A stretch of 64,000 bases of DNA, taken from the IMG/VR virus record IMGVR_UViG_3300027895_000005, positions 38,139 through 102,138 of that record. The stretch is one strand, 5' to 3'. The DNA is from a virus. Below, one piece after another: positions 1,693 to 44,967 of the stretch. A model generated the notes under the pieces. It did not search any database. It was not told where the DNA came from and saw nothing but the letters and a program-made list of their open reading frames with translations. Each line of letters starts with the position of its first letter. The first letter of the stretch is position 1. Both the position numbers and the translations under genes were made by a program.

Positions 1693-4600
1693 CAGCCGGC
1701 CCCTCCAATGGCTTGCTCGATCGGGCCAAGGATCGCCCGGCGAATCGAGTCGATCATCTCACCCTTGCCGCCACGAGCCTCAGCGCCTGGCACATTCTTC
1801 GCGATCGCTCGCAGGTCGTCGGTGGACCGAGATGCAAGCTGCATCTCATCCAGTTTCGATTCCACGTCGGCCCTGACGCGAGCCACGTTGCCGGTGTTGA
1901 TGTGTCCCGCCCTGCCAAGCGCCGTCATCTGGGCGGCCATGTCGTCGTAGAGGCTGCGCGCCCTGGCGGCGTGTTCGTGGGACGCGGTGGCTGGCGCTGG
2001 CGATGGCCCGGGTGTGGGCGTCGCCGGCTGTGCTGGCGTCGGCGGCTTCGCTTCGCCCTTGCCTGCCAACTTCCCCTCGATCCACTTCGCCACCGCAGCC
2101 TTGCCGGTGCGAGGCTGGTCCGCAGCAGGAACGGCGTAGTGATACAACCTGCCCTTCTCTTGCAGGCTCTGGTCTTGCTGTTCCTGCGTGAGTCGGTGGC
2201 TCTCGTTCAGCTTGTGCAACTCGATGAGGCGATGCCGCTTCATCGCCTCGACAACGTGCATGGCATCACCGGCCGACATTGGCTTGCCGGTTCGCTGCTC
2301 ATGCAGTCGCTGGATGTTGGCGGCCACGTCCGGCACGGTTAGCGTGAGGCTCTTGTACAGGGGCGCTTCATCGACGACTTCCGCCACGTCGGCGATATTG
2401 TCGCGCAGGAGGCGGTCGCCGTGTGCGGGGTCGATCAGCGTGGTGCGCTCGCCGCCCAGTCCTTGCGACACCATCAGGCCGTCCTTCTGCGACACGACCT
2501 TGCTGCCCGGAGGCGGCTTCAAGCTGGGGGCGGATGGCGAGACGGGCGCGGGCGCGGGCGCTGCCGGCTTTGGTGGTTGCGGTTGCTCCGCTGCCGGTTG
2601 CTCCTGCTTCCGGCTCACATAGTGGATCGGATTTGTCCCGCCGACGTCCATTGCCGCCTGTGCAAGCTTCGGGTCGGTCTTACCCCGCGCCTCGTGCGTC
2701 GTGCCGGTGAGCGTCTTGCCCAGGTGCGGCCGGATGGCGTCGTGCAATTGCTCCCGCGAAAGGCCGGTCTCCTGCTGGAGCGCGTGGAGCGGAATAAGTC
2801 CGCCCGGGTGCCTGTCGTGAAGTTCTTCGACAGCGTCCATCACGGCGCGTTGATGGCCCGTCTTGACCTCCTCGGGGGTCTTCTCCTTCCGCTTGACCGG
2901 CTTGTACATGTCCGATCGCACGTTCAGGCCGTGTACCGTGTCGATGCGGCTCTTGAGTTCGTTGCGCAGTTTGTCGGTGGTCATCGACTGGCCGCCCTTG
3001 AACTTGAGAGCGTCAGCCGAACGCAGGAGATCCGCCTTGCTCATCCCGTCGAGGACGCTGGCCGCTCCCTTTACATCTTCGGCGGTCCATGAGTCGGGAC
3101 CGCTGTCCCACATCTTTCCCAGGTGAGCGACGGCGTCGTGGGTTGTGGCGGCGTGGTCGGGTGCGACAGGCTCGACATGCATAAACGTCTCACGTTCACC
3201 CGGTACACCGCGAAGGATGTCTTCAGGCGAATGTTTGCCGGCCAGTAAACCTGCGGCAACCAGGCGAACCTTGTCATCTCGTCGCAATCCACGCAGGGCG
3301 TCGTCGAACTCTCTCCGCGAGGCGTCCACCTTGTTGCGCAGAGCCGGAATGTTGACCATGCCGCTCGCGTCCTTTGGAGCGTCCTTCATGGCCTCCTGAA
3401 CGCTCTCTTGCACCTTCGCCAGTCGCTCAGGAGAGGGGCGCGGCTCGCTGTAGACCGGCGTCTGCTCTGCCCTGCTCCGTTCGGCGTCCGACTTCTCTTG
3501 CGCCGACCACTGGCTGGCGTCGTGGGTTGTGGCGGCGTGATCCTTCGCGGCCGGCTTCACCGCGGGCAGTTCTTGCGGGACGGGCGCGGGGGATTGCTTC
3601 AATCCCCCCGCTTCGGCGTCACCTCGTTGGGCGTTTGCGGTTTTTCCTGCTCCTTTTCCGGGAGGAACTTCCAACTCAGAGGATCGCCCTGCGTGAACCG
3701 GCTTTCCCGCACCGGCTTCTCCTCGTCCGGCTGGTTCGTCAACGGTTTGTTCGAGTTCGACATGGTAACTCCCGTTCTCGTTCTTGAAGCTCTTGACGCG
3801 GAACTTGCTGTTGTGGTTGAGGAGAAGCTCCCACTCCTCCGGGACGACTGCGTAGGGCTTCACGTCCAGCCCGTGCCGCGCGGCAATCGTCATGGAAAGC
3901 TGATTCTGCTTCCCAAAGCCGAAGTCGCTCCGCGCCAGCTTCTCGTCCGTGGTGGTGGACTGATAGCCGGGTAGCTGAATCTCGCCCCCGCCATTCGCTG
4001 CCTTTTCTAGTTTACGCAGGAACGTGGCCTTGTCTGCCGACTTCATGCTCTTCATGTCGATGCCGCGATAGACGTTGACCGGCTTGTCCATTGGTGGAGA
4101 CTTGGCGAAGGCCTTCTGGAGGTTCTCATGAATACGGCGGATATCCGGATCAGAAGGCTGGCCACCCTTGTAGAGGGCGCTGTTCAGGTCGCGGAAAACC
4201 TCCTCTTCGGAGTACCGCTCCAGAGCATCCTTCTCCCCTGCCTCCAGCGCCGGCCGCGTGAAGTCGGGCAGGTAAGGCGACGGCGCCATCGCGTGTGGGT
4301 CGTCCGACGGCTTCGGCAGGGACGCCGGTTTGAAGCTGGGCCGATCGTCTGGCTTGGCCTCGGGATGCACCGCAGGCGCTTGCGGCGGCGCAACTGGCTC
4401 AGGAGCAGCAACCTCTGGCCGGGCGATTGGGGCTGGTTCAGGCTTCGCTGCTGGCGCTTCGGCCGGCCTCTGCGGCGCTGGCTGGTTCGCCCCTCCTCGC
4501 TTCGCTTCCAGTTTCGCCTTCAACCCCTCGATATCCGTCAGGTCGTGGCCGTGCAGGTCGTCCCCCAGGATCGCGTGCAACGCTTCGTAGGCTTGCTTGT

Positions 4601-37949: not shown

Positions 37950-38275
37950 GCATTCGCAAACCGACCGAGACGGACCTTATCAAGCCGTCCTTGCAACTGC
38001 TGGCGATGCGCGGAGCGTTTGCCTGGCGGAACAACACGGGCGGAATGCCAACACCTTCCGGCGGGTTTATCCGCTTCGGAACCCCCGGATCGGGGGACAT
38101 CTTTGCGGTGTTGCCCGACGGTCGGTTCCTGACGGTTGAACTCAAGTGCGGGAAAAACAAGGTGACGCCTGCGGAAGCGGCGTTCATGGCGCAGGTGCGC
38201 GACCGGGGCGGCGTATGCATCGTGGCGTACTCGATTACCGAACTGGATGCACTGCTCAAGGAGACTATGGAATGA
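37946..38275 (+). CDS. VRR-NUC family nuclease
   Basis: PGSGDI..FLTVELK..TPAEAAF. Confidence 0.85.
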   Translation: MSIRKPTETDLIKPSLQLLAMRGAFAWRNNTGGMPTPSGGFIRFGTPGSGDIFAVLPDGRFLTVELKCGKNKVTPAEAAFMAQVRDRGGVCIVAYSITELDALLKETME

Positions 38276-41301: not shown

Positions 41302-41696
41302 AACTGACAGTCAAGGTCACCGAGCAGGACATCGACGACGGTCTGGGCGGCAACGTCGCCTCCTGCCCGATCGCCCTGGCAACGACGCGGGCGCTGTGCA
41401 GCGCCGGGTTCAGGAATCTGCGCGCGACGTGGGAACACGTCCGCGCCTTCTGCGCGCCGGAAGGGTTGGTCGTCGAGCATCGCTATCTGCCGGACGATCC
41501 GGTATGCCAGGTGGGCGTGGGCGACTGCCCCGACGAGATGAGCAAGTTCGCCTCGATGTTCGACGACTGGTACGAGCGGCAGTGCATGGACGCTGACGAC
41601 CCGGAGTATCTGGATCAGGACGGCTTGCCCTACGACCGACCAGCGCCGATCGAGTTCGTGGTGGAGTTGCCGGCGTGGGACGCGCCAAACGCTTGA
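41298..41696 (+). CDS. Hypothetical protein
   Basis: RBS aggagg; VTEQDIDDG..CPIALA. Confidence 0.7.
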   Translation: MKLTVKVTEQDIDDGLGGNVASCPIALATTRALCSAGFRNLRATWEHVRAFCAPEGLVVEHRYLPDDPVCQVGVGDCPDEMSKFASMFDDWYERQCMDADDPEYLDQDGLPYDRPAPIEFVVELPAWDAPNA

Positions 41697-41742
41697 CGCC
41701 GTCGTGGCGGACGAGCGGCGGGGAACTGAGAGGGAGGGGATT

Positions 41743-44541
41743 ATGGCGACCGAGATCGAGGATGTGCTTTCCGGACGGGAACCCTGGACTGTGCAGCAGG
41801 GGGATTGCCGATTGGTTCTGCCGACGCTGCCGGATGGGTGTGTGGACGCCGTGGTCACTGATGGACCCTACGAACTCGGTTTCATGTCCAAGGATTGGGA
41901 TGCTTCCGGCGTCTCGTTCAATCCGGCGACGTGGCGGGCAATCCACCGCGTCCTTCGCCCCGGCGGTTATCTCGTTGCGATGGGCGGTTCACGGACCTTC
42001 CACCGAATGGCCTGCGCCGTCGAGGATGGCGGGTTCCAGATTCGTGATTGCCTCATGTGGTTATATGCGTGCCTAAGCAACGACACAGAACTACTGACCT
42101 CGAAGGGGTGGGTTCATTACAGTAGAATCACGACTGACAATCTCGCACTCGCATACAATCCGACTTCGGATTCGTTCCGGTGGGAGAAGGTTGAGGAAGT
42201 GATGACCTATGACTACTGCGATACCGCCTACCGAATTCAATCGGATCACACGGACCAAATCGTCTCCAGAAATCATCGCTGCCTTGTTAAACGAGGCGGA
42301 AGCTACGCATTCGTCTACGCGGAGGCATGCCAACAGCAAGAGGGTGTACCCGTTCTGGAAGACGTGCAAGGTCTGCTCGACGCCCTACCAGTGCCAGACC
42401 AGAGAGCAGGCGGCGCGCAACAAGACTTGCTCGCCAGGATGCGCCGCGAAGGCGATCGAGGGGCAGCGTGCGAGGAAGCCAGTAGTGGAGCGGTCGGGAT
42501 TGAAGATGGTGGCGTGCGCCGTCTGCGGCAAGGTATTGTGGCGGTTCCGCTCCCGGCTGGCGAGGACGAAGAAGCCGACGTGTTCACGGCAGTGCAACGG
42601 CAAACTGCGCGGTGCGGCTTTAACTCCGCACGCCAGCAAGGGACGTGCGAACTGGACGGCCGCGTCAGTGGCGTACACCAAGAAGATGACGGGGGCAAAC
42701 AATCCGGCGTGGAAGGGTGGGGTAACGTACGTCAAGCGCAAAGGCAACTACGTCGGTCACAAGTATGTCCGCTGCCCGGCGGAGTTCCTTCCGATGGCGA
42801 GGAGGGACGGCTACGTTGCCGAGCATCGGTTGATCGTGGCGCGCATCATCGGTCGGCTACTGACCAGGCTGGAAACGGTTCATCACGAGAACCACAACCC
42901 GCTCGACAACCGACCCGAGAACCTGATGCTGTTTGCCTCCAACAGCGACCACAAACTGTACGAGGCTCACGGCACGCCAGAGCCGATCTGGCGATGGTAA
43001 CGCCCGTTTGGCATCAGGGCGTCGTCTGGTGCATCCGCGTGCCCTCTGGTGCGTTTGTCGCTCGCCGCAACGGCAAAGTATTCGTCACCGGAAACAGCGG
43101 CTTCCCGAAAAGTGACGGGTGCCTCAAACCGGCCTACGAACCCATTATCCTCGCGAGAAAGCCGGGGAAAAAGGTGTTGCCGTTGGGTATCGACGAGTGC
43201 AGGATTAAAGCAGATGACGGCGTTCCCCTCTTCGGCAACGGCAGAAGGGAAGCCGTCAACGCCTACGCAAACGGTATGGGGTGCGACGGCAGGACCGGGG
43301 AGATTTCGCACGCGGGCCGCTGGCCCGCCAACGTCGTTCATGACGGGTCCGACGAGGTGATGGAGGGGTTCCCGGAAGCGGGGAGTACCTTGAAACATTC
43401 CTACCCAGATCAGGACTCCGGAACAGGCGGGGAAAGCGGGAAGTACGGTCGCTTCGGCGCAAAGACCGTTACGACTCATGCCGACTCTGGCAGCGCCGCC
43501 CGCTTCTTTGCGATGTTTCCAGAGGACGAAAGCGGGTGGATGTTTCGCCGCGCCAAGGCTATAATGGAGGTATGGAATCAACAACATGCCTTCATTGTGG
43601 AAAAGAGTTCGTCCCTGCCAAGCGAAGCCGCCGCTTTTGCTCTCGCTCATGCAGTAGTAGCGGCCAGCCAAGAGGGCAGGCGGCTAAACGGTGTGCGGGG
43701 ACTTTCTACGAACGTAACGCCCAGCGAATTAAGGACGCTCGCAGAGAGCGCTATCGCGGCGACCCTGAGTATCGAAAGAAGGTTCTTGCCCGAACAGCAG
43801 CAAGGAAAGCCCATCCCATCCAGCAACTATGTGAAGTGTGCGGTGGGCCGGCACAGCGGCACCACGACGATTACGATAAGCCACTGGAAATCCGATGGCT
43901 CTGCGGATCGTGTCACATTGGACATCACGTTGTCGAGCGAGGTTCCTGGGGTTCCGGGCTCTCCGTCCCAGAGGTTTAACTACTGCGCCAAGGCATCCAA
44001 AGAGGAACGTAACGAAGGGTTGCACAATCTCACTCCCGCGAGGGGCGTTCGGACTAACGCCCCTCGCGGGAGTGAGACGGAGAAGACTGTGCCTCGCCGC
44101 AACAATCATCCCACGGTCAAGCCGGTCGCGCTCATGTCATGGCTTGTCCGTCTCGTCTGTCCAGCGGGCGGTCTGGTTCTTGATCCCTTCGCCGGGTCAG
44201 GTTCGACCGGGGTCGCTTGCCGGATGGAGGGGCGGCGCTTCATAGGAGTTGAGCAGGAGGAAGAATACGCCGACCTCGCCCGCCGCCGCATCGCCTCGGT
44301 TAACCCTCTGGCCGACTCCTGCGAGCGCGCCGCCGCAAAGGCCCCCGAACGCGACCTGTTCACCGCGCTACCCGACTCAGCCCCCATCGCCACCGACCCG
44401 GAGCACCCGCCCGAAGCGCCCACCCCCGCCGACGTCGCCCCGGCGCCCGGTGAGGTTCCACCGAAGCGAGCGGCGAAGGGGCGAGGAAAGAAGTCGGCGA
44501 CGGTGGAGGGTGGTGAGGAGTTGTTCGAGAAGGAGGGATAA
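41743..44541 (+). CDS. N4/N6 DNA methyltransferase (beta class) with an intein and a second in-frame insertion
   Basis: VTDGPY, SGFPKS, SAARFF..YCAKAS, HPTVKP, VLDPFAGSGST; RBS gggagggg. Confidence 0.9.
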   Translation: MATEIEDVLSGREPWTVQQGDCRLVLPTLPDGCVDAVVTDGPYELGFMSKDWDASGVSFNPATWRAIHRVLRPGGYLVAMGGSRTFHRMACAVEDGGFQIRDCLMWLYACLSNDTELLTSKGWVHYSRITTDNLALAYNPTSDSFRWEKVEEVMTYDYCDTAYRIQSDHTDQIVSRNHRCLVKRGGSYAFVYAEACQQQEGVPVLEDVQGLLDALPVPDQRAGGAQQDLLARMRREGDRGAACEEASSGAVGIEDGGVRRLRQGIVAVPLPAGEDEEADVFTAVQRQTARCGFNSARQQGTCELDGRVSGVHQEDDGGKQSGVEGWGNVRQAQRQLRRSQVCPLPGGVPSDGEEGRLRCRASVDRGAHHRSATDQAGNGSSREPQPARQPTREPDAVCLQQRPQTVRGSRHARADLAMVTPVWHQGVVWCIRVPSGAFVARRNGKVFVTGNSGFPKSDGCLKPAYEPIILARKPGKKVLPLGIDECRIKADDGVPLFGNGRREAVNAYANGMGCDGRTGEISHAGRWPANVVHDGSDEVMEGFPEAGSTLKHSYPDQDSGTGGESGKYGRFGAKTVTTHADSGSAARFFAMFPEDESGWMFRRAKAIMEVWNQQHAFIVEKSSSLPSEAAAFALAHAVVAASQEGRRLNGVRGLSTNVTPSELRTLAESAIAATLSIERRFLPEQQQGKPIPSSNYVKCAVGRHSGTTTITISHWKSDGSADRVTLDITLSSEVPGVPGSPSQRFNYCAKASKEERNEGLHNLTPARGVRTNAPRGSETEKTVPRRNNHPTVKPVALMSWLVRLVCPAGGLVLDPFAGSGSTGVACRMEGRRFIGVEQEEEYADLARRRIASVNPLADSCERAAAKAPERDLFTALPDSAPIATDPEHPPEAPTPADVAPAPGEVPPKRAAKGRGKKSATVEGGEELFEKEG
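42070..43095 (+). mobile_element. Intein (342 aa)
   Basis: WLYA|CLSNDTELLT; block B VSRNH; block F VWCIRVP; VTGN|S; removal restores WLYASGFPKS. Confidence 0.9.
42209..43000 (+). CDS. HNH endonuclease overprinted (+1 frame) inside the intein; start uncertain
   Basis: Two Cys4 motifs, GANNPAWKGG, EHRLIV..VHHENHNPLDNRPENL. Confidence 0.8.
   Translation: MTTAIPPTEFNRITRTKSSPEIIAALLNEAEATHSSTRRHANSKRVYPFWKTCKVCSTPYQCQTREQAARNKTCSPGCAAKAIEGQRARKPVVERSGLKMVACAVCGKVLWRFRSRLARTKKPTCSRQCNGKLRGAALTPHASKGRANWTAASVAYTKKMTGANNPAWKGGVTYVKRKGNYVGHKYVRCPAEFLPMARRDGYVAEHRLIVARIIGRLLTRLETVHHENHNPLDNRPENLMLFASNSDHKLYEAHGTPEPIWRW
43510..43980 (+). mobile_element. 157-codon in-frame insertion in MTase carrying an alternate-frame HNH gene
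   Basis: Splits SAARFF|YCAKAS; no intein termini. Confidence 0.75.
43572..43979 (+). CDS. HNH endonuclease overprinted (-1 frame) in MTase
   Basis: CLHC..FCSRSC; CEVCG..RHHDDYDKPLEIRWLCGSCH; TATAAT at 43560 ends 7 nt before ATG. Confidence 0.8.
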   Translation: MESTTCLHCGKEFVPAKRSRRFCSRSCSSSGQPRGQAAKRCAGTFYERNAQRIKDARRERYRGDPEYRKKVLARTAARKAHPIQQLCEVCGGPAQRHHDDYDKPLEIRWLCGSCHIGHHVVERGSWGSGLSVPEV

Positions 44542-44542
44542 C

Positions 44543-44683
44543 ATGGACTGGACGCATGATCGCCTTGCAATGGTGCAACTGATCCTGCTGCACACTCGCG
44601 GATTCGCGCCCGAGGTGCGATTCCGCTATGAGCGCCTGGAGGCATACTTAATCGAGTGCATCAACCGGGAGGAGCAACCGTGA
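44543..44683 (+). CDS. Small hypothetical protein
   Basis: RBS aaggagg. Confidence 0.55.
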   Translation: MDWTHDRLAMVQLILLHTRGFAPEVRFRYERLEAYLIECINREEQP

Positions 44684-44967
44684 TCCGCAAGAACGCATGG
44701 ACCTGTCGGGAGGTGCATTGTGAGGGCGAACCGATGCCGGAGACAGCTTTCGTTATCCGCGCATGCACCCCTATCGACGTCCGGGAAGCTGCCGAGATGG
44801 CGGCACAGCGGCTGGAGGAGAAGTTCCAAGGCGACCCCTCCGAGTGGGATCTGTTGCATGTCACCACTCGGCAAATGATCGAGGTGTGTGAATCGGACGA
44901 CGTCTGGCGACGATTCACTGTTGTGTTCAGCTTCAAACCCATCTACAAGGCGGAGGAGCAAACATGA
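44680..44967 (+). CDS. Hypothetical protein
   Basis: GTGA overlap. Confidence 0.6.
   Translation: MIRKNAWTCREVHCEGEPMPETAFVIRACTPIDVREAAEMAAQRLEEKFQGDPSEWDLLHVTTRQMIEVCESDDVWRRFTVVFSFKPIYKAEEQT

Follow-up and report, generated by a model that had tools for sequence, protein, structure and literature searches.

How can an intein carry a homing endonuclease which its own reading frame does not encode? By definition inteins are in-frame elements, and the nuclease of an intein is usually regarded as one of its domains. The question is raised by an N4/N6 DNA methyltransferase gene within a 64,000-nucleotide (nt) stretch of viral DNA, referred to below as the window, which covers positions 38,139 to 102,138 of the IMG/VR virus record IMGVR_UViG_3300027895_000005, a 105-kb record from a soil metagenome assembly. 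An intein interrupts this gene, and within the intein, in the +1 frame, lies an HNH endonuclease gene. We consider it very probable that the two make up a composite selfish element of the phage methyltransferase gene, in which an intein with a stop-free junk linker would be removed by protein splicing and a separate +1-frame HNH gene would be translated on its own to act as homing endonuclease. The features on which the following description relies are:

41743-44541, plus strand: N4/N6 DNA methyltransferase precursor open reading frame (ORF) P0001, 932 amino acids (aa); matches PF01555 (expectation value, E, 2e-29) and phrog_67 (E 9e-64).
42070-43095, plus strand: intein in the methyltransferase frame, 342 aa, from Cys1 to a final Thr-Gly-Asn, then Ser+1 at 43096.
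42070-42399, plus strand: N-terminal splicing lobe, residues 1-110, with blocks A and B and Ser66-x-x-His69; beta-rich in the AlphaFold2 (AF2) model with a local confidence score (pLDDT) >90; also indicated by codon wobble.
42193-42199, plus strand: Shine-Dalgarno (SD)-like GAGGAAG, 9 nt before ATG 42209.
42209-43000, plus strand: HNH endonuclease gene in the +1 frame (P0002), 263 aa, with its own TAA at 42998-43000; matches PF13392 and PHROG HNH families.
42209-42343, plus strand: putative dual-coding stretch of 45 codons, in which the HNH N-terminus lies over the N-terminal splicing domain including block B; indicated by open frame, ATG and entropy.
42365-42595, plus strand: two CxxC...CxxxC zinc-finger modules of P0002 (residues 53-78 and 103-129) with invariant Cys.
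42457-42966, plus strand: junk linker in the intein frame, residues 130-299, stop-free; pLDDT ~32-41, no secondary structure, no Pfam match.
42701-42955, plus strand: NPAWKGG motif (residues 165-171) and HNH core (205-249: EHR ... VHH.NH ... N..NL ... HK) of P0002, defined by invariant alignment columns and Pfam.
42967-43095, plus strand: C-terminal splicing lobe, residues 300-342, with blocks F and G, ending in Asn342; pLDDT 88-95; also indicated by codon wobble.

The methyltransferase gene is a single ORF of 932 codons without any stop which harbours both the intein and a second insertion described further below. Its motif WLYA|SGFPKS is split at position 42070 by 342 codons. The inserted segment starts with Cys (TGC at 42070-42072, opening the sequence Cys-Leu-Ser-Asn-Asp-Thr-Glu) and ends with Val-Thr-Gly-Asn (Thr-Gly-Asn at 43087-43095), directly followed by the Ser of SGFPKS at 43096. 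In an alignment of 39 intein sequences Cys1, His69, Trp320, Cys321, Thr340, Gly341 and Asn342 as well as Ser+1 are invariant, and Ser66 is nearly so. These residues constitute block B (Ser66-Arg-Asn-His69), block F (Trp320-Cys321) and block G (Thr340-Gly341-Asn342), while the C-extein starts with Ser-Gly in all family members and with SGFPK in most of them. A profile of the N-terminal domain, built from the first 97 intein residues and 37 relatives, matches inteins of solved structure, namely AceL NrdHF (6zgq, E 4e-8), Aes123 PolB1 (9hth, 2.5e-5) and Spl DnaX (7cfv). The AF2 model of the 342-aa product, built with the 39 sequences, is confidently predicted in both splicing lobes, and all its top Foldseek matches are inteins, bacterial intein-like (BIL) or hedgehog Hint domains, with 16 matches reaching E<=1e-3. 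Pfam yields no match to the window's own intein sequence, and Hint_2 or Intein_splicing is matched directly by some family members only, because of which the assignment rests on family profile and fold. By both, segment 42070-43095 is a genuine intein of the Hint superfamily, one that would be expected to splice. A group I or II intron core was sought at the nucleotide level over 41500-44700, where no Rfam match at E<=1 was obtained. An intein-free allele is provided by the methyltransferase of mycobacteriophage Mantra, in which AWLYGSGFPKS is contiguous. A preliminary annotation of this DNA, made from the letters alone and referred to here as the first-pass annotation, had described a Cys1...Asn|Ser intein splitting WLYA|SGFPKS, and all of its elements are found where it had placed them.

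The middle of the intein does not look like the endonuclease domain of a bifunctional intein. The two splicing lobes are joined by a stop-free linker of ~170-230 codons, and in the intein frame neither a LAGLIDADG nor an HNH motif nor any Pfam match is present, as had been noted in the first-pass annotation. The nuclease is found one frame further. P0002 matches PF13392 (HNH_3) at 28.0 bits via its residues 206-242, the curated cut-off being 24.8, and several PHROG HNH families match it down to E 8e-15, so that its initial description as a Cys4-Cys4-HNH endonuclease terminated by its own TAA holds. Among 27 HNH sequences all eight zinc-finger Cys residues are invariant, as are His225, His226, His229, Asn238 and His248 of the HNH core, a His-Asn-His beta-beta-alpha metal motif, and His206 is nearly invariant. 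The AF2 model of P0002 reaches a mean pLDDT of 84. Structural comparison is less informative: with the whole model, which is elongated and multi-domain (predicted template modelling score, pTM, 0.42), Foldseek retrieves I-HmuI from the PDB only at rank 49, and a PDB profile search with the HNH alignment indicates only weak zinc-ribbon likeness (eL24/FCS-type).

Whether both frames are maintained was assessed by shuffling synonymous codons in every HNH body, so that protein sequence and codon usage stayed the same. Over the HNH body of the window the intein frame contains no stop compared to 4.6 expected, zero being reached by 0.3% of the shuffles. Over 43 loci it likewise contains none compared to 425.5 expected, whereas the third frame is close to chance with 526 stops observed and 476 expected. 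No homolog with an intact HNH gene has a stop in the intein frame. Per-position entropy, calculated from 49 sequences, adds a second and directional signal. From 42041 to ~42325 the most variable codon position lies in the intein frame, from ~42326 to ~42990 it lies in the HNH frame, and from there to 43095 it lies in the intein frame again. These switches of the wobble phase therefore show that in the splicing lobes purifying selection acts on the intein frame, whereas between ~42326 and ~42990 it clearly acts on the +1 frame, which encodes the nuclease. In its middle the intein frame is selected only for staying open. Both frames are held open by selection, and the locus is an overprinted gene pair.

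This layout is shared by a large family. Two independent scans of IMG/VR, one based on the HNH alignment and one on that of the intein N-domain, yielded 80 loci each; in all, 145 relatives were confirmed by the second of these. The pooled scans comprise 72 distinct inteins of 178-427 aa and 32-62% G+C content (GC) from uncultured environmental phages. In 70 of them the HNH motifs are present at offset +1, in two they are absent, and in none (0/72) do they occur in frame. Nearly all share the insertion site W.YG|SGFPKS. A tblastn search moreover retrieved the AT-rich 484-kb genome of an uncultured jumbo phage (LR756508) which contains the methyltransferase, an intein at the same site and an HNH gene at +1 (42% identity). 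Searching with the intein N-domain profile revealed no form with an in-frame HNH, only two deletion mini-inteins. In these two (L110:2221-2817, 199 aa; L130:2501-3034, 178 aa) the catalytic part of the HNH has been lost by in-phase deletion, both splicing lobes are kept and both reading frames are still continuous; their appearance is that of natural mini-inteins which descend from the overprinted form. In a further locus (L051) a nonsense codon occurs in the HNH frame while the intein frame is still open. All three fit the stages of decay expected of a homing cycle. Of what the first-pass annotation had proposed, an HNH gene overprinted on a junk linker is thus borne out by stop avoidance, wobble switch, disordered middle and the 70/72 layout; the excision of the linker by splicing and the separate translation of the nuclease are what we infer.

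The life cycle of the element can be pictured as follows. Ribosomes in the methyltransferase frame would read through the linker and produce a 932-aa precursor, from which the Hint lobes would excise the whole 342-aa intein in cis, junk included, joining WLYA to SGFPKS. The free HNH protein would be made by internal initiation at ATG 42209, with GAGGAAG upstream of it, and would presumably cut intein-less methyltransferase alleles, into which the element would then be copied.

Where translation of the nuclease begins had been left undecided between ATG 42209, GTG 42344 and an out-of-frame ATG at 42327. Position 42209 corresponds to -46 or -48 with respect to the YPFW motif, and an ATG occupies it in 29 of 43 loci. 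The remaining loci carry an in-frame ATG elsewhere within -43..-66, which brings the total to 43/43 compared to 9.6 expected. The +1 frame itself is open for at least 46 codons upstream of YPFW in 43/43 loci (12.3 expected), both expectations having been obtained from host-synonymous shuffles of the 43 loci. The conserved ATG is made of a host Tyr codon TAT and the subsequent G, and the TAT:TAC ratio at this site amounts to 31:10, compared to 103:149 at the other Tyr codons. Within -17..-5 of the conserved ATG, 45% of the loci show an SD core of 4 nt or more, as opposed to 7% of background windows, and the host third-position entropy is lowered across 42209-42343. Taken together, ATG 42209 is the best-conserved and preferred candidate start, located 45 codons inside the N-terminal splicing domain, and with this start the stretch 42209-42343 would therefore be truly dual coding. 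TTG 42284 ranks second: nearly all loci have TTG at one of two neighbouring codons (-21 or -20 from YPFW), a preference which is there inseparable from the constraint imposed by the intein frame. The two other codons considered initially were discarded. The codon preceding YPFW, GTG 42344 in the window, varies among the loci (GTG, ATA, ACA, GCG, CGA, AGG, CCG and others), and ATG 42327 belongs to the third frame, in which it heads an ORF of 52 codons.

The same region bears on one of the alternatives, namely that the HNH protein arises from programmed +1 ribosomal frameshifting and is made as a fusion of N-extein, N-intein and HNH which ends at TAA 43000. A recognisable SD sequence is missing at many loci, at ~42340-42360 both of the overlapping frames are conserved (VPILED in one, YPFWK in the other), and no expression has been observed at all. 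Frameshifting, however, requires the +1 frame to be open only downstream of the shift, and would account neither for its extension by at least 46 codons upstream of YPFW in every locus nor for the in-frame ATG which is always present and which arises from a biased choice of the TAT codon. In addition, no conserved slippery motif is evident at the switch in the nucleotide alignment, in which no formal search for one was made. We therefore regard frameshifting as improbable and continue with internal initiation as the preferred route.

Several observations nevertheless weigh against the composite element as we describe it. The penultimate intein residue is Gly where His is usual, and this Gly, together with the conserved Cys of block F and the Thr of block G, leaves the splicing class open. 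The spacing between SD sequence and ATG, 9-12 nt, is at the long end of the workable range, and an SD core is missing from 55% of those loci which have the conserved ATG. A sigma-70-like promoter was not found on the plus strand of 41500-44700, RNA structure around the start is not unusual (z-score -0.39), and no RNA run holding the locus sequence was found. For HNH residues 1-40 conservation forced by the intein frame may alone account for the high AF2 confidence, and the loci entering the counts given above are not phylogenetically independent. Finally, the target site of the HNH protein is presumed.

Is the nuclease bound to this intein? HNH genes are accommodated in the same methyltransferase family in several other ways, one of which is found in the window itself, downstream of the intein:

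43510-43979, plus strand: second, non-intein insertion of ~154 codons (~460 nt) between ARFF and YCAKAS, without Hint motifs and with 'RF' duplicated at its ends.
43536-43979, plus strand: out-of-frame HNH ORF within the second insertion (P0003), 147 aa; matches the phrog_2340 endonuclease (E 2e-14).

The methyltransferase of L004 is devoid of this second insertion. In the synonymous-shuffle test, carried out with the window sequence alone, the open host frame of the insert is not significant, as only 0.52 stops are expected. At loci L061-L083 (e.g. L063:2657-4828 and L077:3044-4777) homologous methyltransferases contain, 10-15 codons past SGFPKS, a non-intein insertion with open host frame which a related HNH gene occupies in the +1 frame. 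Of 21 such loci, 17 have the insert flanked in the host frame by CxC ... CxxC. These Cys motifs may form a zinc 'clasp' which, in place of splicing, would hold the two ends of the junk loop together. In L059:2365-4503 the methyltransferase is divided into two minus-strand ORFs (4503-4111 and 3429-2365) between which a related HNH gene lies in antisense orientation (3480-4199). The broken ends carry the motifs CHC and CPCCGKP and no intein, so that this locus looks like a fractured gene without intein, possibly a fractured relative.

In a tree of the HNH sequences the 'clasp' nucleases fall into at least two well-supported groups nested among the intein-borne ones, and the starred branches force at least three changes of context; the tree is rooted solely at its midpoint, and among the rows with the label 'openframe_other' several are apparently intein-type loci which the context pattern missed. 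These nested changes suggest that the nuclease gene, and not the intein, is the moving unit. Possibly, and we advance this with some reserve, a single HNH lineage has repeatedly changed its shielding device, these devices being the cis-splicing intein of the window, the CxC...CxxC 'zinc-clasp' loop, gene fission with antisense HNH (L059) and the loop known as ShiLan domain. The overprinted intein with its 45-codon dual-coding overlap would then be a long-lived stable state and not a passing stage on the way to a bifunctional intein with in-frame nuclease.

The role as homing endonuclease is suggested by the intein-free alleles, by the nonsense and deletion derivatives and by the switching of context on the tree. 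It has to be weighed against the idea that the nuclease is a domesticated partner of the methyltransferase, for instance in a restriction-like or anti-competitor function against which the methylase protects the phage, with the intein as mere housing. The layout is indeed old and stable (70/72 intact, GC 32-62%), and wherever the HNH lineage was found it sat in this methyltransferase family, albeit in three different housings. A partnership of this kind, however, fits poorly with the existence of intein-free alleles and of nuclease derivatives disrupted by nonsense codon or deletion in which the intein is intact. These derivatives and the changes of context on the HNH tree make up the pattern of a selfish homing cycle, and insertion into a conserved motif is explicable without any partnership with the methyltransferase. 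We thus consider domestication quite unlikely and retain the selfish homing element.

Another alternative concerns the intein rather than the nuclease. The Hint domain might not splice at all, in which case the 342-aa insert would be kept as a tolerated loop of the methyltransferase, as has been proposed for the ShiLan domain. The penultimate Gly would agree with this, as would the fact that related HNH genes live in the methyltransferase gene without any intein (PMC11855218). A mere loop, on the other hand, would not be expected to show an invariant nucleophile Cys1, block-B His, terminal Asn and Ser+1 across 39 sequences, nor a wobble in the host frame which indicates strong purifying selection on both lobes, and the insertion breaks the conserved methyltransferase motif W.YG|SGFPKS. 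We rate a non-splicing Hint domain as very unlikely and adhere to a splicing intein. That an ordinary in-frame intein-HNH has been turned into this layout by a frameshift error in assembly or sequencing, an idea favoured only by the prior expectation of in-frame nucleases in inteins, is refuted, as it would require two compensating indels in spite of the HNH gene having its own stop codon, as the +1 offset is common to seventy independent assemblies and as a Logan contig, assembled independently from the reads of a sample which is possibly the source of the record, is identical over 41900-43300 (0 differences, 0 gaps, depth ~16) and therefore rules out a frameshift artefact.

The layout has more precedent than the first-pass annotation, which gave in-frame endonucleases as the norm, had supposed. 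In actinophage inteins homing endonucleases encoded in a separate frame have been reported by Gosselin, Arsenault and Gogarten (bioRxiv 10.1101/2025.01.02.630785). The ORF in 'frame 3' is endonuclease VII-like, and those of LAGLIDADG and VSR-like type are antisense, whereas HNH is listed solely as an in-frame domain. As exteins their inteins have DNA polymerase, minor capsid, terminase and thymidylate synthase. The layout was read by the authors as the invasion of an intein by a free-standing nuclease gene. As in their inteins, the splicing domain of the present one is encoded in the extein frame, which is kept open, and between the splicing blocks lies the nuclease as an ORF of its own; the window's intein holds this ORF on the same strand in another frame and so belongs with the inteins carrying an out-of-frame homing endonuclease. 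In contrast to their examples, the nuclease is here an HNH enzyme at +1 and the extein a methyltransferase. Their secondary ORFs are described as lying mostly outside the splicing domain, whereas the HNH ORF of the window starts 45 codons inside it, and the present family is large (72 distinct sequences) and stems from uncultured environmental phages instead of actinophages. An out-of-frame nuclease in an intein is hence of a kind already known since 2025, and it is the nuclease type, the extein, the overlap with the splicing domain and the size of the family which differ here. Full-text searches of the literature retrieved no report of a +1-frame HNH within a methyltransferase intein.

The second close relative is the ShiLan domain, a hidden out-of-frame HNH without intein in a mycobacteriophage DNA methylase (Arsenault et al., Genes 2025, PMC11855218). 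Here as there, the host is a PF01555 phage methylase whose frame is open and the nuclease is out of frame, and residues 96-259 of P0002 are 29-33% identical to ORFs of Mantra, ShiLan and Filuzino. The ShiLan domain, however, lacks splicing domains and is thought to be retained as a loop, whereas the insert of the window is buffered by a bona fide intein. It is furthermore located at a different site (EPVVVARKP, duplicated), has a frame offset of 2 and a proposed leaderless GTG start, while the intein HNH described here is at +1 and has an ATG. It is the second insert of the window (43510-43979) which resembles the ShiLan domain. As a separate observation, gp64 of Mycobacterium phage Mantra (L002:934-3258) contains a ShiLan-type HNH together with an in-frame LAGLIDADG-like segment (YWLAGLIDGEGCF).

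In the fractured genes of Dassa et al. (NAR 2009, PMC2677866) a free-standing endonuclease gene is located between the halves of a split intein. The present element resembles them in having a nuclease gene of its own, placed between the N- and C-terminal parts of the intein, and the solved structures nearest to the window's intein are those of naturally split phage or metagenomic inteins (AceL NrdHF, Aes123 PolB1). Fractured genes, however, consist of two host ORFs and rely on trans splicing, whereas the host frame of the window is one 932-aa ORF for which splicing would occur in cis. With the canonical bifunctional inteins containing an in-frame HNH domain, for which Dalgaard et al. 1997 is cited, it shares the combination of intein and HNH nuclease as homing unit. 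In the canonical case the intein polypeptide includes the nuclease as one of its domains, while here it would be a separate polypeptide from another frame, with in-frame HNH motifs in 0/72 inteins.

The arrangement would thus represent a stable alternative in which the intein serves only as a protein-level buffer removing a nonsense product and the nuclease is an independent overlapping gene. The ~70 diverged sequences offer a natural test bed for the idea that splicing came first and was later followed by the invasion of a nuclease gene. They likewise open to study the selection acting on two frames at once, including the 45 codons which splicing domain and nuclease would share. Gene callers used in annotation will overlook the nuclease and output a single long methylase. 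For intein design it is of practical interest that ~170 disordered residues are apparently tolerated between the two lobes.

A few further observations concern the methyltransferase gene itself. Its catalytic motif at 41860-41871 reads Asp-Gly-Pro-Tyr in the window, compared to Asp-Pro-Pro-Tyr in all relatives examined. Between YCAKAS and NHPTVKP, at 44028-44077, the ORF contains a perfect 22-nt inverted repeat with a 6-nt loop, which encodes a similar peptide on both strands (TPARGV..NAPRGSE) and for which Rfam gives weak matches of hairpin type only. In two further methyltransferases with the intein (L065:2846-5572 and L040:2831-5689) additional long stop-free insertions are present at other conserved sites, in the former between the duplicated motifs EPVIVAQKP / EPIVLARKP, in the latter between YCAKAS and the xTVKP motif. 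The methyltransferase gene family looks like a hot spot for read-through insertions.

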